From Escherichia coli (GTDB lineage: Bacteria; Pseudomonadota; Gammaproteobacteria; Enterobacterales; Enterobacteriaceae), in assembly GCF_003019035.1 (NCBI RefSeq), contig NZ_CP027447.1: 64,000 bases of DNA; one strand, given 5' to 3'. The position numbers and the translations under genes were made by a program. Of the stretch, positions 15,867-56,499 are shown piece after piece; within the stretch, counting starts at the first letter, position 1, and each line of letters begins with the position of its first letter. The notes beneath the pieces are model-generated. The model had not been told where the DNA came from, ran no database searches, and saw nothing but the letters and a program-made list of their open reading frames with translations.

Positions 15867-16256
15867 ATGATTGACGCTCATGACTTCACAAGATGGGTGC
15901 GCACACAGGACACCCGTCTGGCTCCCGTTCTTCAGGGATTATTTGATCTCTACATCCGTGGTCGTGACAACAGAGCACGCACCACAAAACCAGAGAATGC
16001 AGACACCCTTTATTTCACAGTAGACGACTGCTACCGCGTGGACTTCACACCACACGGGCTGGCGTTGCACTGCCTGACACCACACGGCGAATCACTACTG
16101 GCTTATTACGACTCCCCGGCCTCCGTATTTGCGGCAATGCTGGCGCATCGCACTGCTGGCGGGTGTGCCTCGCTGAGTGAATACACCGCTGAATTTAACC
16201 GCCTTTCCACCCTCTTCTCGCAGGAGTGGCAGCGCGTGACGGGATACCAGCCATGA
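15867..16256 (+). CDS. Hypothetical 129-aa protein
   Basis: ORF whose stop overlaps the probable gene A start (ATGA). Confidence 0.55.
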   Translation: MIDAHDFTRWVRTQDTRLAPVLQGLFDLYIRGRDNRARTTKPENADTLYFTVDDCYRVDFTPHGLALHCLTPHGESLLAYYDSPASVFAAMLAHRTAGGCASLSEYTAEFNRLSTLFSQEWQRVTGYQP

Positions 16257-19093
16257 GTGAGTTTGCATGGAGCTGGAATGAACCACGGCCAGCCATTGAT
16301 CCAGCCAGATTTACGGAGCACAGGCAGGAAACTGAAACCGACCTGCAACGCGCCATCCGTTACTACCTTGAGGCGGACAAAAGGGCACAGAAAGAACAGG
16401 AAGCAAAGGAAGAAGCCTTTTTCGCACAATCCGCCATGGGTAAAAAACTCATGGCATCCCATGAGGAAGCCGGACAGCGTGAAAAGCTGGCACAGAGCAT
16501 CATCAGTAAGCGCCGGGCAACAGAACAAGACCCGGTAGCCCGTGCCTTTGCCACACTGAAGGCGCTTCCCGTTTATCTGCGAGAACCTCTGAGCCGCCAC
16601 CTCTCTTTCCTGCGCAAGAAGCAGGAAGCCGATCGTCAGAAAGGCAAAAAGAGCTGGCAGGCGGAACGCTATGCACGCGGAACCCTGCGCAAAATATTCG
16701 AACGTCTGGACCGCACCGACAGCCGCTGGCTGACACCGGGTTATCGCTCTCTTGCCGGACGCGAACGCCTGGACGATTTGCTTTACCTGCCGCAGCTCAA
16801 CAAACACCAGATACAGACGCTGGCCACCATGACGGCGGCGATGTTCAGCAGCACCTTCGAAAAACTCTGCGATGGCTTTGGCGCGACTGATGGCGAACTG
16901 ACCATGGATGTAACGCTGAAGGCGTATCAGATGCTGGCCCGCATGGCGTTACACCTGCACATCATGCCTCCACATTATGACGCACTGACAACAGATAAAG
17001 ACCGGAGGAACGAACCGGACACGGAGCTGCTGCCGGGCGCAATCCTTCGCCTGACCTGTGCGGAATGGTGGAAACGCAAACTGTGGCTGTTACGTTGCGA
17101 GTGGAGAGAAGAACAACTCCGCGCCGCCTGTCTGGTTTCCAGAAAAACATCACCCTATCTGAGCCAGGACGCGTTAAGCGAGTTTCGCGCACAGCGCGAG
17201 AAAACACGCGATTTCCTGAAAAGTTTCATGCTGGAAAATGAAGACGGGTTCACGATTGATCTCGAGACGGTGTATTACGCGGGAGTAAGTAACCCGGTTC
17301 ACCGTAAGGCAGAAATGATGGCCACCATGAAGGGACTGGAACTTCTGGCCGAAGCCCGTGGCGACAGAGCGGTGTTTCTGACTGTCACCTGCCCGTCAAA
17401 ATACCACGCAACAACGGAGAACGGTCATCCGAACCCCAAATGGAACGGGGCCACCATGCGCGACTCCAGCGATTACCTGGTTAACACGTTTTTTGCGGCG
17501 GTCCGCAAAAAACTGAACCGCGACGGCCTGCGCTGGTATGGCATCCGCACGGTGGAGCCTCACCATGACGGCACCGTGCACTGGCACATGATGGTCTTTG
17601 CTCATCCAGAAGAAATCGACAGCATCGTGGCCATCACCCGCGATATTGCCATTCAGGAAGACCGCCACGAGCTGGGCAATGATATTACTCCGCGCTTTAA
17701 GGTGGAGTATGTCGACGGCTCAAAAGGCACACCAACCAGCTACATCGCCACCTACATCGGAAAGAACCTGGACAGCCGCGCCGTGGATGGCATCGACCCG
17801 AAAACGGGCAAGCCACGCGTTGACCACGAAACCGGAAAATCAATGGCCGAGAGCGTGGAACGCGCCATCGGCTGGGCGCGCCTTCACCGGGTCCGCCAGT
17901 TCCAGTTCTTTGGTATCCCCTCCCGTCAGGTGTGGCGTGAACTGCGCCGCCTTGCCAGCCAGATGGCACGCAACCCGGAAGGCCCGCAACGGCTGAAGGA
18001 TGACGCAATGGACGCGGTACTCGCTGCCGCTGATGCCGGATGTTTTGCCACCTACATTGAGAAACAGGGTGGCGTACTTGTTCCACGCAAAGACTACCTG
18101 ATTCGCACCGCCTACGACCTCGCAGATGAGCTGAACGATTACGGCGAGCAGAGTGTACAGATTTACGGGATCTGGTCGCCGCTCATCGGGGAGTCTTCCC
18201 GCGTGTGCACGCACCCGGATAACTGGAAGCTGGTAAGACGTAAACCGGAAGCGGAAGACAGCGCCCGCGAAAATGGTTTTGACCTTCAGGGCGGCCCTGC
18301 CGCCCCTTGGACTCGTGGCAATAACTGTCCCCGTGTACAGGAAACGGACAACAACGGGACAGAACAGCCGGAAGAACGGCCAGCACCGTGGCCGCAGCTC
18401 CCTGACGGCGTTGAAGTGAACGAATGGATGCGCTCACTGAAACGGCACGAACGCCGGGCGCTGATGCGTTCGCTTCGTGACAAACAGGCAAAAAACAGCA
18501 GTGATGAAATGCAGAGCTGGACACAGAGCCGCAAACAGCAGCGGCCTTTGCCTGATAACCACGAATTACTCGCTAAAGAATGGCGGGAGTCTGCTGAATC
18601 TCTCGGCCTGCATATCGGTGAACAGCAGATGCAGCACCTGTTACGGGGCGGCAGTCTGTACGTTGACGGCAGCATCATTGCACCGCAGGGATTTGAAATT
18701 GTACGCAAACCGGATACCCGACCGGACAGCCGGATCACGCAGCTCTGGCAGCGCCTGAGCCGTAACCACGGCGTAAGCAGCACGGAGATCCGCCATAACC
18801 CGGTCGCCAGCTATCTGGAACAGCTGGCGGCATCAGACCCCGAAGCCGCCGCACGCCTGGCATCCACACTTCAGCAAGACCAGAACACCATGAAAACACC
18901 CGTTACCGTGCTTTCTGACATGCTGCGCGCCATCCGCGACGCAGAGCACGCACAGAGAATCAGTGAAACCACTGAACGCGCCCGCCGCAAAGCAGACCTG
19001 CTGCGGGGTGGCCTGACCATTGGAAACAAAAAACAGACAGAAACGGGATTCACAAATCCCGTAAATGAGCAAAAAACGCGCCGCGATATATGA
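16253..19093 (+). CDS. A: P2 gpA-type replication initiation endonuclease
   Basis: LTVTCPSKYHA and VEPHHDGTVHWHMMVF are rolling-circle HUH/Tyr motifs that parallel remembered P2 A. The start is placed at the ATG (MSEFAWSW) coupled to the upstream stop. Confidence 0.9.
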   Translation: MSEFAWSWNEPRPAIDPARFTEHRQETETDLQRAIRYYLEADKRAQKEQEAKEEAFFAQSAMGKKLMASHEEAGQREKLAQSIISKRRATEQDPVARAFATLKALPVYLREPLSRHLSFLRKKQEADRQKGKKSWQAERYARGTLRKIFERLDRTDSRWLTPGYRSLAGRERLDDLLYLPQLNKHQIQTLATMTAAMFSSTFEKLCDGFGATDGELTMDVTLKAYQMLARMALHLHIMPPHYDALTTDKDRRNEPDTELLPGAILRLTCAEWWKRKLWLLRCEWREEQLRAACLVSRKTSPYLSQDALSEFRAQREKTRDFLKSFMLENEDGFTIDLETVYYAGVSNPVHRKAEMMATMKGLELLAEARGDRAVFLTVTCPSKYHATTENGHPNPKWNGATMRDSSDYLVNTFFAAVRKKLNRDGLRWYGIRTVEPHHDGTVHWHMMVFAHPEEIDSIVAITRDIAIQEDRHELGNDITPRFKVEYVDGSKGTPTSYIATYIGKNLDSRAVDGIDPKTGKPRVDHETGKSMAESVERAIGWARLHRVRQFQFFGIPSRQVWRELRRLASQMARNPEGPQRLKDDAMDAVLAAADAGCFATYIEKQGGVLVPRKDYLIRTAYDLADELNDYGEQSVQIYGIWSPLIGESSRVCTHPDNWKLVRRKPEAEDSARENGFDLQGGPAAPWTRGNNCPRVQETDNNGTEQPEERPAPWPQLPDGVEVNEWMRSLKRHERRALMRSLRDKQAKNSSDEMQSWTQSRKQQRPLPDNHELLAKEWRESAESLGLHIGEQQMQHLLRGGSLYVDGSIIAPQGFEIVRKPDTRPDSRITQLWQRLSRNHGVSSTEIRHNPVASYLEQLAASDPEAAARLASTLQQDQNTMKTPVTVLSDMLRAIRDAEHAQRISETTERARRKADLLRGGLTIGNKKQTETGFTNPVNEQKTRRDI
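19043..19062. repeat. Palindrome ACGGGATTcacaAATCCCGT (copy 1; candidate parC/ParR site)
   Basis: 8-bp arms within a roughly 30-bp unit that is repeated 73 bp downstream. Lies in the last codons of gene A. Confidence 0.45.
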
Positions 19094-19169: not shown

Positions 19170-20129
19170 ATGAAAATTTGTATCGATGACGGCTCCACCA
19201 ACATCAAGCTGGCATGGACTGAGAACGGCGAACGCCGCAACGCCATCAGCCCGAACAGCTTCAAGTCGGAATGGTCTGCGCCGTTCGGTGGCACGCAGCC
19301 CGCGAACTACATGCTTGATGGCGTGCGCTATGGTTTTGATCCGGTCAGCGATCGCTTTGTCCAGACGACCGACACGCAATACCAGTACAGCGATGTGAAT
19401 GTCATTGCCATTCATCACGCGCTGGTCAAATCAGGCATCACACCACAGGAAGTGGATGTGGTTGTCACCCTGCCACTGAGCGAATATTTCGACACAAACG
19501 CACAGCCGGACATGGCCAACATCAACCGCAAAAAAGCAAACGTCATGCGCCCGGTGGCGTACCAGAACGGAAAAGCATTCACTATCCGTAACGTACGGGT
19601 TATGCCTGAATCCATTCCGGCTGGTTTTAAAGCACTGGCTGACATGAGTCCGTTTGAATCCCTGCTGATTGTGGATTTAGGCGGAACCACGCTGGATGTG
19701 GCAAAGGTTCAGGGACAACTGGCAGGTATCAGCCAGGTGTTTTGCGATCCACACGTAGGCGTTTCCCTGATGGCCGATGCCGTACTGTCGGTGATGGCCA
19801 CTAACGGTATGCGCACCAGTCACCACATCGCCAATACCATTATCGAACATCGCCATGATGAAGCCTGGCTGCGCCAGCACATCCACAATGACGCGCATTA
19901 CGCCAGCCTGATGGCGGTTATTCGTGAAAAGGAAGAAACACTGAAACAACGCGTGATCCGCGCGCTGGCGGTTTTTTCGGGTTACGGGCGGGTGATGGTT
20001 GTCGGTGGCGGGGCGGAGATTGTGGCACCCGCTATCCGCGAAGCCTGCGGAGTTAATGCGACTTTCATCGCGGACGGGGTGCCACAATTTGCTCTGGTTA
20101 ATGGGCTGTACGCAATGAACAAGGAGTAA
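19170..20129 (+). CDS. parM: ParM/StbA actin-like plasmid segregation ATPase
   Basis: 319 aa. ICIDDGSTNIKLAW, YSDVNVIAIHHAL, MPESIPAG, IVDLGGTTLDV and VVGGGAE align colinearly with remembered plasmid R1 ParM. Confidence 0.85.
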   Translation: MKICIDDGSTNIKLAWTENGERRNAISPNSFKSEWSAPFGGTQPANYMLDGVRYGFDPVSDRFVQTTDTQYQYSDVNVIAIHHALVKSGITPQEVDVVVTLPLSEYFDTNAQPDMANINRKKANVMRPVAYQNGKAFTIRNVRVMPESIPAGFKALADMSPFESLLIVDLGGTTLDVAKVQGQLAGISQVFCDPHVGVSLMADAVLSVMATNGMRTSHHIANTIIEHRHDEAWLRQHIHNDAHYASLMAVIREKEETLKQRVIRALAVFSGYGRVMVVGGGAEIVAPAIREACGVNATFIADGVPQFALVNGLYAMNKE

Positions 20130-20133
20130 ACCA

Positions 20134-20445
20134 ATGACGACACCAACCAGAAGAATAAGTTTCTATCTGAAGCCAGCTGCCGTCAAGAACGAAGGAGAAG
20201 CATGCGCCTGGCTGGACAGTCTTACACCAGAAGCCCGCAAAAGCGGCCAACGCGTGGCTTTTCTGGCCGGGCTGGCACTTCTGAAGACGAATCCGGCAGA
20301 GGCTTACCGACTGGCCGCATGGGCTGATGATGAGATGTTACCTGTGACACAAATCAGCTCAAAAAAGTTTGAAGCACAGTCTGCACCAGTGGCTAAGATA
20401 ACCAGCCAGATGGCTGGGAATATCCGGGCGTTATTTCCTGAGTAA
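20134..20445 (+). CDS. parR: ParR-like centromere-binding adaptor
   Basis: 103 aa. RRISFYLKP...LDSLTPEARKSGQRVAFLAGLALLKTNP parallels the R1 ParR N-terminal RHH region. Lies immediately downstream of parM. Confidence 0.7.
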   Translation: MTTPTRRISFYLKPAAVKNEGEACAWLDSLTPEARKSGQRVAFLAGLALLKTNPAEAYRLAAWADDEMLPVTQISSKKFEAQSAPVAKITSQMAGNIRALFPE

Positions 20446-20515
20446 AAGCATCTGCGCGAAAAATGCTCACGTTTATAGAGACAGTATCATTCCATTTGGC
20501 ACACTTACTTCAATA

Positions 20516-20602
20516 ATCGATCTGTTAAACAAATAGATTGTCTATTATCTATCGATTAAAACGATCAATTATCTTGACAGTAATGTGCCTTTTTGTAAGA
20601 TC
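20516..20602 (+). promoter_or_regulatory. GATC-rich operator-like module plus sigma70-like promoter reading rightward
   Basis: ATCGATCTGTTA (20516-20527) and ATCGATTAAAACGATCAAT (20551-20569). TTGACA (20574-20579), 16 nt, TAAGAT (20596-20601). Three GATC sites at 20519, 20563 and 20599; the last overlaps the -10. Both motifs recur at 45754-45804. Confidence 0.5.
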
Positions 20603-20809
20603 GTTCGCATTGTGAGCGACAAGATAATTGCGCGGCATTGTCCATGCAAAACGCCCCAATAGCAGCAACTATTGGGGCGTAAAACTCGGTCGGACTCACT
20701 TAACCTGATATGCGTGCCTTCCGAAGTAAATCAAAATGTGCGTCGTATATTTTATTGCTTACACGCACCTCTGTAAAGGCACGCATATTTTTCCTATGAG
20801 GTAAATAAA

Positions 20810-21079
20810 GTGCGGGCTAAAACAGGTATTTGCAAGAACCCTCATCGTTATAATCCAACATTTCTGTCTCTCCCTGAATATCAAGGACAAGAAGGTCGGC
20901 ACAAATGCGCTGCCTGTGCTTTTGAGCTAGGCATAAAAGATGCGCTTGAAGGACGCGCTATGGCTCAGAATGATTTAGTTTTAGCTAACATTCCGTTTAG
21001 CCAGGCTGGAACTGTAAGGCACAGAGATGCCTATGAAGCATATGTTCGTGGTTGGCGATTAATACACAGCAACAATTGA
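20810..21079 (+). CDS. Hypothetical 89-aa moron protein
   Basis: GTG start 9 nt after GAGG. It has its own promoter region and a strong terminator. Contains HKCAACAFELG. Family not recognised. Confidence 0.5.
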   Translation: MRAKTGICKNPHRYNPTFLSLPEYQGQEGRHKCAACAFELGIKDALEGRAMAQNDLVLANIPFSQAGTVRHRDAYEAYVRGWRLIHSNN

Positions 21080-21565: not shown

Positions 21566-22612
21566 TCAGGATGTGGGCTGGGTATCTAACAGTGCGTAAG
21601 GGTTAAAGCGGATCACCTCTTCGCCAAGCCAGTCATTGATGTGCTTCATGGCCTCCATGACGGGCATCAGCTCGTTAATTGCGTAAACCCGCGCGGCCTT
21701 CTCCACATCACCAAACGCACTTTTTTCGCCCGGCATCGCCCCCATCAGTTGCGGCGGAACGCGGTGCGCAGCCAGCACATCATCACGGGATGCCGCCTTA
21801 ACATTCATGAACTCATCTTTTGCGGTGATCTGCTGGAACGGCAAAATTTGCACCCCCTCTTTGCCCCCGTTGGGCGCATGAATGAGCACGTTTTTAAACG
21901 CACCACCACCACGTGCCCCCTGTAGCGTTTCTTTCAGGGAGTCCATGCTTTCGCGGTTTACCTGCGCTGCACCGATGTAGATGATGCACCCGGCGTGGGA
22001 TCCGTTGTCGTAGTACAGTTTTCTGAACATGTCCGCTGAATGAGAAAGGCTGGCCGAGAGTAATGCGCCAAGATATTCCGGCATGCCGTAGATTTCCTGG
22101 TTAATATCCGGATTCATCAGGTGGCACACTTTGCCAGGACGAAACTGGAACGCGTCCTTGCCATCCTGCACATACCACCATGATTCAAGATCGCTTCCGC
22201 GTCGCATGTATTTCGCCAGGGCGTGCCGTAATTTAAGCGGTTCGCCGAGCATATTGCTTCGAAGCTCAAGGAATGCGTTACCGAACACAAACCAGTCCAG
22301 CGCCAGCGCCGAGAAATCCTGCCGGGAAAGCAGCGGGTGCGGGATGTAGCAACCGAGTAATACATTGCGCTTAAAGTAAAGCGCAGACTGATGCCAGGAC
22401 GTTTGCCGGGCAGCTCTTGCCAGACCGTACCAGTCCACCGGGGTTTCATACCACCGCCCGTTATCAGCACAGTACATATTGTCCAGCAGGTCATGCCCGG
22501 TCAGGCGATAAGGACCATCAAATGTGAATGCACTGAGCGATGATTCTTTCCTGAGCGCATCAGCGAGATCAATGCGTGAACTCATGCGCACTTTTTTATT
22601 TTTTCTGCTCAT
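21566..22612 (-). CDS. Q: Portal protein (P2 gpQ)
   Basis: 348 aa, colinear with remembered P2 Q (GRWYE, VFGNAFLE, PDINQEIYGMPEYL, HRVPPQLMG). Confidence 0.93.
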   Translation of the reverse strand: MSRKNKKVRMSSRIDLADALRKESSLSAFTFDGPYRLTGHDLLDNMYCADNGRWYETPVDWYGLARAARQTSWHQSALYFKRNVLLGCYIPHPLLSRQDFSALALDWFVFGNAFLELRSNMLGEPLKLRHALAKYMRRGSDLESWWYVQDGKDAFQFRPGKVCHLMNPDINQEIYGMPEYLGALLSASLSHSADMFRKLYYDNGSHAGCIIYIGAAQVNRESMDSLKETLQGARGGGAFKNVLIHAPNGGKEGVQILPFQQITAKDEFMNVKAASRDDVLAAHRVPPQLMGAMPGEKSAFGDVEKAARVYAINELMPVMEAMKHINDWLGEEVIRFNPYALLDTQPTS

Positions 22613-35990: not shown

Positions 35991-36454
35991 GCCCTTACGA
36001 TGTAATTAAACGCAATGTTATGGGGGCGTGTTTCAGATGCTGTGCGAACTGAGCGAGAGGCGTCGAATGTCCATACAGAAGCACCATATCCTTCAATGAT
36101 CTCAGTTGGTTGTAAGCCTACTGATAATATAGAGTCAGTTTGACTAAATGGTCCTGAATTAAACGCATCTTTAAAAAGCTGAGTACGCCCAAAAGTGCCA
36201 ACTATATTCTGAATAGCGTCAGACTGTGCAGACAGTAGGTTGCGCCCATTATCAACGCCCCGTCCGTCATCCCAGCCGCGAATAAATTCGCCCCGTAAAT
36301 CCGGTAATTTATTGGTGGAGTAGGCCTTTGCCAGATTGGGGTACATTTCAGAAGAAAATGCTGCGCCGTTACATTTCAGCCACCCCGTTGGCGGCGTGGC
36401 TGAGGGCCATGGAACGGGCACACCAACGGGCAGCGCAGAGCCTTCCCCCAAACC
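35984..36454 (-). other. Promoterless tail-fiber C-terminal cassette Sv4
   Basis: Same conserved N-terminal roughly 70 aa and C-terminal RPHNIAFNYIVRAA, with a unique middle. Confidence 0.8.
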
Positions 36455-44999: not shown

Positions 45000-45260
45000 A
45001 TGTTCCGTTGTCCGCTTTGTGGCGCATCTGCCCGTATCCGCACCAGTCGTCCGGAAAATGATTCAAACACCGTGCGGCAAAAGTATTACCAGTGTAACAA
45101 TCTGGAATGCGGCGTATGCTTCTCAACACTGGAAGCTTTCCATAAATTCACATCAAAACACGCCTCCGGCGTTCACTCTTCAGAAGATATCCCGTGGCAT
45201 GATCTGCCAGCTTCACACAGGGGAAACAATCAGATGAGTTTGCCTTTATCTCAGAATTAA
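45000..45260 (+). CDS. ogr: Ogr/Delta-family zinc-finger late transcription activator
   Basis: MFRCPLCGASARIRTSR...YYQCNNLECGVCF has the CxxC...CxxxxC pattern, like P2 Ogr. Confidence 0.88.
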   Translation: MFRCPLCGASARIRTSRPENDSNTVRQKYYQCNNLECGVCFSTLEAFHKFTSKHASGVHSSEDIPWHDLPASHRGNNQMSLPLSQN

Positions 45261-45269
45261 CAGGCAGAA

Positions 45270-45298
45270 TTGCCGGAGTAACAAAAAAGCGATAGATT
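45270..45298 (+). promoter_or_regulatory. Candidate promoter of the hok-like mRNA
   Basis: TTGCCG, 17 nt, TAGATT. The predicted start near 45305 coincides with GGGTGCC, which pairs with the 3' end of the transcript. Confidence 0.45.
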
Positions 45299-45451
45299 AC
45301 GCGCGGGTGCCTTTCGGCTGATGGTCGGAGGGAATACCCGAAGGCCAGATGTGGAAAGGCCCCGGAAAACATCTCTGTTTAACCGAGGCCCTAACATATC
45401 TACCTTAAGCAAGTGATAGGTTAGCGCCTCTCCAACAAAGGAGCAAGCGCT

Positions 45452-45592
45452 ATGTCGCAAAAATCGCTTACGGCCATCACGTTCTGCGTGACGGTAATCC
45501 TCATCATCTGGATGCTGCACGGTTCGCTGTGTGAAATACGGATGAGCTTCTGGGGAGCGGAGTTTGCGGCGTTCTTACAGTGTAAGCAGTAA
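45452..45592 (+). CDS. Hok/Gef-family type I toxin (46 aa; not in ORF track)
   Basis: MSQKSLTAITFCVTVILIIWMLHGSLCEIRMSFWGAEFAAFLQCKQ. An N-terminal TM is followed by the SLCEIR...E(F/V)AAF signature of Hok (compare R1 Hok ...[22 protein letters not shown]). SD AAGGAG. Confidence 0.75.
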   Translation: MSQKSLTAITFCVTVILIIWMLHGSLCEIRMSFWGAEFAAFLQCKQ

Positions 45593-45677
45593 GGAAACCG
45601 CGACGGGGGAGCAATCCCCCGTCAATCGGTTGCTAAGGTTGGCTGAAGTGGCACCCTATCTCTCAGACATGAACAAC

Positions 45678-45712
45678 AAACCCGCAGCGTAAAAACTGCG
45701 GGTTTTCTTTTT
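45678..45712 (+). terminator. Rho-independent terminator of the hok-like mRNA
   Basis: AAACCCGCAG-cgtaaaaa-CTGCGGGTTT followed by TCTTTTT. Confidence 0.8.
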
Positions 45713-45753
45713 GCTACCCTCACAAATGAGGGCACCATACATAAGCAATAGGC

Positions 45754-45807
45754 ATAACAGATCGATGCAATAAATCCGATCGATAAAAACGATCGATTTG
45801 TTATCAT
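45754..45807 (+). promoter_or_regulatory. Triple-GATC operator-like module and weak promoter upstream of com
   Basis: ATAACAGATCGAT (45754-45766) and ATCGATTTGTTAT (45792-45804) form a 13-bp inverted repeat. ATCGATAAAAACGATCGAT lies at 45779-45797. GATC sites at 45760, 45778 and 45791. A TATCAT -10 candidate (45802-45807) has a poor -35. Confidence 0.5.
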
Positions 45808-45841
45808 ATCGGCAGCAGTAACCACACAAGAGGTGCCGCAA

Positions 45842-46039
45842 ATGACGCAAAATGTACGATGCAAAAATTGCAACAAACTACTTGCCCGCGCCTCATTTCA
45901 CTACATTGAAATAAAATGTCCGCGCTGCAAAACACTTAACCAGATAACGAGAGCCATCGAGCACCCCACACACATGAGGAGTTATGACCGTGGGGATCGC
46001 AATCCAGCACCAACCAGCACATACACCGGAACACACTAA
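45842..46039 (+). CDS. com: Mu Com-like zinc-finger translational activator
   Basis: MTQNVRCKNCNKLLARASFHYIEIKCPRCKTLNQITRAIEHPT compares with remembered Mu Com MKSIRCKNCNKLLFKADSFDHIEIRCPRCKRHIIMLNACEHPT. Its 3' end overlaps the next gene out of frame. Confidence 0.8.
   Translation: MTQNVRCKNCNKLLARASFHYIEIKCPRCKTLNQITRAIEHPTHMRSYDRGDRNPAPTSTYTGTH
45964..45995 (+). promoter_or_regulatory. Stem-loop sequestering the methyltransferase SD and start codon
   Basis: CCCCAC (45964-45969) pairs with GTGGGG (45990-45995), enclosing GAGGAG and the ATG at 45984. This is analogous to the Com-regulated mom translation-initiation hairpin. Confidence 0.45.
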
Positions 46040-55379: not shown

Positions 55380-56465
55380 TTACCAGCGTGGAATATCAGT
55401 CTTCACATCGGCATTTTGCGCCCGTTGCCGTAACAGGTGATCCATTAAAACGATCGCTAGCATCGCTTCCGCGATCGGCACCGCGCGGATCCCAACACAA
55501 GGATCGTGACGACCTTTGGTGATCATCTCAACTTCTTCGCCAAAGCGGTTAATGGTGCGCCCCGGCACGGTAATACTGGAGGTTGGCTTCAGCGCCATAT
55601 GGGCAATGATTTGCTGCCCGCTGCTGATACCGCCAAGAATGCCGCCCGCATGGTTGCTCTGGAATCCGTCTTTGGTGATTTCGTCGCGGTTCTGGCTGCC
55701 ACGCAGCGCTACCACGTCAAAACCATCACCAATTTCTACGCCTTTCACCGCGTTGATGCTCATCAGCGCATGGGCGATGTCGGCATCCAGGCGATCAAAG
55801 ACCGGCTCGCCAAGTCCGGCGGGGACGCCACTGGCAACAACGGTGACTTTCGCGCCGATGGAGTCGCCCTCTTTTTTCAGCGCGCGCATCAGTTCATCTA
55901 ACGCGTCGATTTTGTCCGGGTCCGGGCAGAAAAACGGATTTTGCTCGACCTGCGACCAGTCTTTGATTTCCAGCGGAATGTCACCCATCTGGGTCAGGCA
56001 GCCGCGGATTTCAATACCAAATTTCTCGGCGAGATATTTTTTGGCAATCGCCCCTGCCGCCACGCGCATGGCGGTTTCTCGGGCGGAAGAGCGCCCGCCG
56101 CCGCGATAATCGCGCAGGCCGTATTTTTGTTCGTAAGTGTAATCGGCATGACCTGGACGGAAAACGTCCTTAATCGCACTATAATCCTGAGAACGCTGGT
56201 CGGTATTTTCGATCAACAAACCGATGCTGGTGCCGGTAGTAACACCTTCAAAAACACCGGAGAGAATTTTGACCTGATCCGGCTCACGGCGCTGGGTGGT
56301 ATAGCGCGATGTCCCAGGGCGACGACGATCAAGGTCATGTTGCAGGTCCGCTTCCGTCAGCGGAATGCCTGGCGGAACACCATCGACGATGCAGCCGAGC
56401 GCCAGCCCGTGCGATTCGCCGAAGGTGGTTACGCGAAAGAGTTGTCCAATTGTGTTTCCAGCCAT
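55380..56465 (-). CDS. aroC: Chorismate synthase
   Basis: [20 protein letters not shown], 361 aa. Confidence 0.95.
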
Positions 56466-56499
56466 CACGGCTCCGTTATTGTTGTGTTTGCGTGTTTAC

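Follow-up and report, generated by a model that had tools for sequence, protein, structure and literature searches.

The 64,000-nucleotide (nt) stretch of Escherichia coli chromosome described here (the window) carries a P88-like (Xuanwuvirus, P2-like) prophage with two short GATC-rich segments, which we call modules A and B. Module A stands between a parR-like partition gene and a gene for an 89-amino acid (aa) protein, and module B stands upstream of a com homologue and a gene for a DNA methyltransferase (Table 1). Each module and its cargo are referred to below as cassette A or cassette B. We consider the modules here as candidate operators of the kind found at Mu mom and agn43, which respond jointly to Dam methylation and to the LysR-type regulator OxyR.

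The two modules share two repeats, and this sharing is far beyond chance. The first-pass annotation of the window had reported a 12-mer (ATCGATCTGTTA) in module A that recurs in module B as an exact reverse complement and once more with one mismatch, and a 19-mer (ATCGATTAAAACGATCAAT) in which the modules agree at 17 of 19 positions; a rescan of the window returned the same positions, orientations and mismatch counts. Its view that chance recurrence is very unlikely also stands. At up to one mismatch the 12-mer has three matches in the window against 0.17 expected, and none of 100 dinucleotide shuffles reaches three; the 19-mer, at up to three mismatches, likewise has three matches, against 0.05 expected. 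The third of these 19-mer matches (three mismatches, 55440–55458) lies inside an open reading frame (ORF) and is unrelated to the modules. Each module contains three GATC sites, as the annotation had noted, but the spacing differs: the sites start at 20519, 20563 and 20599 in module A (44 and 36 bp apart) and at 45760, 45778 and 45791 in module B (18 and 13 bp apart). Both promoter candidates that it had named were found again, TTGACA-16-TAAGAT with GATC-3 (20599–20602) overlapping the −10 at module A, and TATCAT with a poor −35 at module B, where a preceding TG can be added. A P2 Ogr late-promoter element (TGT-N12-ACA, near −55) is absent from 20440–20620 and 45700–45830. Relative to the predicted start sites, the 19-mer of module A falls at about −58 to −40, whereas in module B it spans the −35 and the spacer.

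OxyR half-sites are published as ATAGxTxxxAxCTAT, and the reduced protein uses half-sites whose starts lie about 32 bp from each other (PMC2909390, PMC4856963). We scored each 15-bp half-site out of 10 against this sequence and each pair out of 20, with spacers of 16 or 17 bp, and read validated Dam/OxyR operators from public sequence records as a yardstick; these share paired half-sites with a 16- or 17-bp spacer and GATCs at the half-site edges. Both modules contain two half-sites at this spacing. Module B reads ATAGGCATAACAGAT-N16-ATCGATAAAAACGAT (7 + 8 = 15/20) and holds its three GATCs inside the site, GATC-2 and GATC-3 being 13 bp apart; one GATC at the inner edge of the distal half-site and two around the proximal one is also how mom and agn43 are laid out. 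Module A reads ATCTGTTAAACAAAT-N16-ATCGATTAAAACGAT (6 + 8 = 14/20); its distal half-site is marginal, and two of its GATCs lie at the outer edges of the half-sites and one in the −10. With a 16-bp spacer, these two are the sole positions in the window that score at least 14/20. By the same measure Mu mom (ATAGAAAACGACGAT-N16-ATCGGTAATACAGAT, GATC spacing 18 and 13 bp) scores 14/20, agn43 (ATAGAATAAAACGAT-N17-ATCGTTTATATCGAT, three GATCs) 16/20, and P22 gtr, with three half-sites 32 bp apart, 18/20, while the best scores at the classical OxyR promoters are 16 for oxyS/oxyR, 14 for katG and 13 for ahpC. Validated OxyR sites span 13–18, and since the classical promoters include half-sites of 6/10, module A falls within their range. 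The repeats are explained in part by this architecture. The 12-mer is that end of a ...TAACAGATCGAT-type half-site which carries the GATC; it also occurs in the distal half-site of module B and the proximal half-site of Mu, and it is inverted in module A, as a pseudo-palindromic half-site permits. The 19-mer of module A is identical at 16 of 19 positions to the left half-site of agn43 with its flank (ATAGAATAAAACGATCAAT).

Table 1. Features of the two modules, their cargo genes and the surrounding prophage region (positions in the window; half-site scores out of 10).
Feature	Position	Strand	Remarks
Replication gene A	16226-19093		upstream of parM
parM (StbA)	19170-20129		directly after replication gene A
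parR-like gene (Plasmid_stab_B)	20134-20445		followed by module A
Module A	20512-20602		between parR-like gene and 89-aa ORF
12-mer ATCGATCTGTTA of module A	20516-20527	+	holds GATC-1 (20519-20522) and first 8 nt of distal half-site
Module A distal OxyR-like half-site ATCTGTTAAACAAAT	20520-20534		6/10; GATC-1 overlaps outer edge
Module A spacer, 16 bp	20535-20550		between half-sites
Module A proximal OxyR-like half-site ATCGATTAAAACGAT	20551-20565		8/10; GATC-2 (20563-20566) at promoter-side edge
19-mer ATCGATTAAAACGATCAAT of module A	20551-20569	+	includes proximal half-site and GATC-2
Sigma-70 promoter candidate TTGACA-16-TAAGAT	20574-20601	+	10/12; TG upstream of -10
Conserved hairpin GCCCCAATAG-N6-CTATTGGGGC	20651-20680	-	5' untranslated region of 89-aa gene; T-run on minus side only
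Promoter candidate TTTACA-17-TAAAAT	20749-20777	-	antisense to 5' untranslated region of 89-aa gene
89-aa ORF	20810-21079	+	cargo of cassette A; followed by cos region
Portal gene Q	21566-22612	-	beyond cos region
ogr	45000-45260		after gene D; followed by hok/mok-like locus
hok/mok-like type I toxin locus	45285-45657		between ogr and com cassette
Terminator	45678-45705		between hok/mok-like locus and module B
Module B	45748-45807		upstream of com and DNA methyltransferase
Module B distal OxyR-like half-site ATAGGCATAACAGAT	45748-45762		7/10; GATC-1 (45760-45763) at inner, promoter-side edge
12-mer copy, exact reverse complement	45755-45766	-	in module B
Module B proximal OxyR-like half-site ATCGATAAAAACGAT	45779-45793		8/10; between GATC-2 (45778-45781) and GATC-3 (45791-45794)
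19-mer counterpart in module B	45779-45797	+	17/19 identical to 20551-20569
12-mer third copy, one mismatch	45792-45803	+	bridges module B proximal half-site and -10
Extended -10 candidate TGtTATCAT	45799-45807	+	TATCAT at 45802-45807, poor -35; com-methylase operon
com homologue (Zn_ribbon_Com)	45842-46039	+	PF10122 match, E = 9.5e-12
Beta-class N6/N4 DNA methyltransferase, 263 aa	45984-46775	+	PF01555; host gene flk next

Module B resembles the Mu mom control region both in the operator and in what follows it. Both have three GATCs spaced 18 and 13 bp apart and two OxyR-like half-sites with a 16-bp spacer, and in both a com zinc-ribbon gene overlaps the start of a DNA-modification gene. The cargo differs, being Mom in Mu and a beta-class N6/N4 methyltransferase in cassette B, as does the phage, Mu-like in one case and P2-like in the other. 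The operator is also placed differently. The Mu operator occupies −104 to −52 relative to a promoter that requires the phage activator C, whereas the predicted operator of module B (about −66 to −21) overlaps its extended −10 promoter. The methyltransferase belongs to the N6_N4_Mtase family (PF01555) and not to the Mom family of adenine-modifying enzymes; among solved structures, the nearest to it is a DpnA-type m6A methylase. The label ‘DpnIIB’ that it carries is an automatic annotation only, and an identification with the non-specific M.EcoGII was rejected on length (349 aa against 263 aa). In two E. coli variants with unrelated upstream sequence (L145 and L146) homology sets in with the ATAG of the distal half-site, and none of the three GATCs is lost; the −10 candidate is invariant in six variants. 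For genome annotation, the resemblance to Mu indicates that P2-like prophages hold, in their com-methylase cassette, an inherited front end of the mom control region. A comparable exchange has been described in Mu-like prophages, where the methyltransferases Hia5, Hin1523 and Nma1821 replace mom behind com and are silent in lysogens (PMC3299994). Like cassette B, these cassettes place a DNA adenine methyltransferase after a Com homologue; in contrast to the PF01555 enzyme of the P2-like prophage, theirs are non-specific and align with Dam and M1.DpnII, and no Dam/OxyR operator has been described for them (PMC3299994).

For module A we regard comparative conservation as the strongest evidence. 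Its footprint was read as three-way DNA identity between the window and two other sequences, L007 and L008, which represent a second cassette lineage with 89-aa protein counterparts 59–60% identical to that in the window. Identity is 88% over the whole operator, 100% in the proximal half-site (as are the last 4 nt of the 19-mer), 87% in the distal half-site and 69% in the spacer, the differences inside the operator all lying in 20539–20545. It drops to 8% in the upstream flank and to 40% downstream, in the early 5′ untranslated region (UTR). The −35, the TG-extended −10, a TTTTGTA(A/G)GATCG block and GATC-3 are kept in both, and 17 close copies of the region have zero substitutions in 20502–20633. 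A compact (N7) OxyR register was also tried for module A and set aside: it scores 13/20, L007 does not preserve its left part, and the N16 register agrees better with the pattern of conservation. Elsewhere in the window the compact consensus has two overlapping matches (15/20 and 14/20), at 36191–36249 in the prophage late region, with no GATC.

Homology to phages P88, Chuche and Shae_phiSM stops right after the stop codon of the parR-like gene, where those phages carry other cargo, and module A starts about 65 bp beyond that stop, which assigns it to the 89-aa cassette rather than to the partition genes. Both modules thus lie at cassette borders, module B at the point where homology to L145 and L146 starts. 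Such positions would suit recombination scars or cassette boundaries retained by descent without a regulatory role, or, for module A, a parC-like centromere for ParM/ParR. Scars would hardly account for the strong and patterned conservation between flanks that have diverged to 8–40% identity, for the invariant GATCs, or for the precise placement of both modules against promoters, and the centromere was rejected because the same parM/parR genes occur without module A in P88, Chuche and Shae_phiSM. We therefore hold either version to be very improbable.

From the observed sequences, conservation, statistics and architectural match to validated operators, we infer OxyR binding, methylation sensitivity, start sites and a direction of regulation. 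We put the probability at roughly 0.6 that modules A and B are Dam methylation-sensitive operators for host OxyR, of the family that includes those of Mu mom, agn43, P22 gtr and opvAB, and that each serves as the built-in switch of a mobile moron cassette. They would represent no new kind of system: module B is a new instance, and module A a weaker variant, of a known regulatory device.

Several points weigh against this proposal. Similar T-N11-A motifs are also bound by further LysR-type proteins that are sensitive to methylation, HdfR among them. In composition-matched shuffles, about 2.7 positions per 64 kb reach 14 or more with spacers of 16 or 17 bp, and the consensus score was for this reason rejected as statistical proof. 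Promoter consensus matches adjoin or overlap both modules and are conserved, but the start sites derived from them are consensus predictions only. In module B, two 12-mer copies form a 49-bp palindrome whose centre, at 45779, lies about 8 bp away from the predicted midpoint of the OxyR site (about 45770), so that the repeat is incompletely accounted for by OxyR half-sites. Module A departs further from the type. Its operator holds only two GATCs, at the outer edges, with no pair flanking one half-site, and its distal half-site lacks the conserved G of ATAG and scores 6/10, against 7–10/10 for the half-sites of gtr and opvAB (PMC2909390, PMC4856963). Finally, literature searches returned no binding, methylome or expression data for either module, and methylome papers on ST131 and O111 hold nothing on these GATC sites.

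GATC-3, being within the −10 of module A, is also what one would expect if Dam acted more directly. GATC methylation at or near the −10 and −35 would then tune RNA polymerase, with SeqA or a methylation-sensitive LysR-type regulator such as HdfR taking the place of OxyR, and the upstream sequence would bind another protein or none. HdfR is GATC-sensitive, and both agn43 and opvAB have SeqA as an ancillary factor. Moreover, where Providencia, Proteus, Yersinia, Rahnella and E. whittamii carry distant homologues of the 89-aa gene, the upstream regions lack the 19-mer and are nonetheless rich in GATCs: these five 450-nt regions contain 24 against 8.8 expected (P = 2e-5), and GATCs stand at or beside the −35 and −10. 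However, direct Dam action of this kind explains neither the intact 46-bp operator with its 16-bp spacer, in which the spacer alone varies, nor the exact match of module B to the GATC geometry of Mu mom, and a GATC spacing of 18/13 bp is out of helical phase for SeqA pairs. We judge it unlikely.

The same type of operator recurs in front of unrelated genes. We scanned viral contigs by 16-mer, and statements on these contigs refer to the matches listed, many of which are chance matches in unrelated metagenomes. Three contigs with com-C5-methylase cassettes (L024, L069 and L100) contain ATTGGTTATATGTAT-N16-ATCGTTTTTATCGAT, which scores 16/20 and abuts a TATACT −10. The 350-aa ORF behind com in these contigs is a putative C5-cytosine DNA methyltransferase, as read from a GGTPCQ-type motif, and the com front end thus appears joined to at least three enzyme families. 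Since the same operator front end accompanies differing com-linked enzymes, the operator seems to travel with com while the cargo is exchanged. Similarly, phi80-type cor genes (in viral contigs L079, L053, L098 and L104 and the phi80 cor region) have ATCGTTTTAATCGAT-N16-ATCTATTTAATCTAT upstream, with 16/20 and three GATCs. We know of no report that cor, which encodes a superinfection-exclusion lipoprotein, is under Dam/OxyR control.

The first-pass annotation had proposed that a common regulator, methylation-sensitive control, or both link the 89-aa moron with the com-methyltransferase operon. The notion of shared control gains from the fit to validated Dam/OxyR operator architecture; the link between these two operons in particular finds no support. 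Phage Chuche has module B and lacks module A, stretches examined in 520873 and 503458 contain module A, the modules are more than 1 Mb apart in strain 2013C-3250 (CP027380), and near-complete viral contigs have one module or the other, never both. By this distribution, cassettes A and B are independent morons, separately inherited.

A prophage-encoded DNA-binding protein that coordinates both morons through the 12-mer and 19-mer fits poorly with this distribution. In its favour, the 12-mer reaches beyond the OxyR consensus positions and its three copies are confined to the two modules, and the palindrome in module B is offset from the predicted OxyR site. Yet near-identical half-sites occur in Mu, at chromosomal agn43 and before the cor genes of unrelated phages, and window scans found no further 12-mer or 19-mer copy at the phage's own control regions. 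Such a regulator is thus quite improbable. Because the cassettes occur apart and the operator type recurs at mom, agn43, gtr, cor and com-C5-methylase genes, the shared factor is most likely host OxyR together with Dam.

Under Dam/OxyR control, OxyR would bind when the GATCs are unmethylated (and in part when they are hemimethylated) and shield them from Dam, and full methylation would exclude it. Since the operator of module B extends over the −35 and the spacer, OxyR bound there should repress com and the methyltransferase. After replication, OxyR and Dam would compete during the hemimethylated window, and heterogeneous expression could follow, as at agn43. A second lock is expected from Com-dependent translation of the methyltransferase, as in Mu. 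The predicted operator of module A lies at about −89 to −44, upstream of the −35 of a near-consensus promoter, and like Mu mom it combines an upstream operator with a TAAGAT −10. Here OxyR might be a repressor, like the OxyR bound upstream of Pmom, or an activator, its role at the AB site of gtr and at opvAB; the sign is not readable from the sequence. Methylation of GATC-3 in the −10 may also affect RNA polymerase directly, by analogy with the methylation-sensitive transposase promoters of IS10 and Tn5. The two promoters are built differently, the operator overlapping that of module B and lying upstream of the −35 in module A, and the same protein may therefore not act alike at both.

The closer parallels to chromosomal and prophage systems differ in several respects. 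The agn43 operator sits downstream of the start site, and its spacer is 17 bp, against 16 bp in modules A and B; the proximal half-site of module B has the same GATCG-N8-CGATC form as is found at agn43. Phase variation has been demonstrated for agn43 and would be a prediction for modules A and B. P22 gtr and Salmonella opvAB have half-sites whose starts are about 32 bp apart, and GATC pairs 13 bp apart inside half-sites, which we likewise count as shared with the modules here, and they control horizontally acquired or prophage genes, as the modules do. They have three or four half-sites whose alternative occupancy gives ON and OFF patterns, whereas modules A and B each have one tetramer site. 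At gtr and opvAB, OxyR acts regardless of its oxidation state (PMC2909390, PMC4856963).

The cargo of cassette A, a member of PHROG 3941, is a real gene that is conserved at the protein level. A word-indexed search for homologues gave two near-identical matches, and the wider set came from an exhaustive search. This 89-aa zinc protein has no detectable fold relative among solved structures. Elsewhere its domain is fused to HNH, NOV_C, DndB and WYL modules, which are typical of defence systems.

The 5′ UTR of the 89-aa gene contains a conserved hairpin that is followed by a T-run on the minus strand only, which makes it a likely terminator of an antisense transcript; the fold z-score is −3.7. 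A minus-strand promoter candidate of the form TTTACA-N17-TAnnnT stands at the same place in eight lineages (including the window, L007, L008, L132–L135 and L140). These features, within 20645–20777, outline a candidate antisense RNA of about 100 nt (predicted from about 20742 to 20645, minus strand) opposite the roughly 200-nt 5′ UTR. The antisense promoter candidate itself carries a GATC in Providencia, Proteus, Yersinia, Rahnella and E. whittamii. An Rfam search of the 5′ UTR gave sub-threshold matches alone, driven by the terminator hairpin, and a known RNA family was therefore rejected.

We conjecture, tentatively and at less than even odds, that the Dam/OxyR operator is a portable moron switch which temperate phages of enterobacteria join to unrelated cargo (Mom, methyltransferases of two families downstream of com, the exclusion lipoprotein Cor, and the 89-aa zinc protein). 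The prophage described here could thereby have a phase-variable second DNA methyltransferase, so that one epigenetic switch, based on Dam, would govern a further epigenetic writer in a phasevarion-like cascade in E. coli. Cassette A would separately couple methylation state, a cis-antisense RNA and the 89-aa protein. If the two modules are indeed such operators, two loci would join the short list of Dam/OxyR-controlled genes. As one target is a prophage DNA methyltransferase, clonal E. coli carriers could then differ in methylome and in restriction protection. The survey suggests operator reuse before many prophage accessory genes (cor, com-C5-methylase), and such reuse would offer a simple rule by which epigenetically heterogeneous expression of morons in Enterobacteriaceae could be predicted from sequence.

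Three further features of the window deserve mention. The ORF with the third 19-mer match (362 aa, minus strand, 55380–56468) is presumably aroC, and inside it GATCs are more tightly clustered than anywhere else in the window, with six in 83 bp (55439–55521). This cluster, which includes the 19-mer match, is probably a coding-sequence coincidence without relation to the prophage modules. The ParM/ParR pair upstream of module A (19170–20445) is of plasmid type, within a P2-like prophage, and is common to P88, Chuche and Shae_phiSM. Upstream of module B, the hok/mok-like locus (45285–45657) is about 84% identical to loci of many Stx-converting phages.
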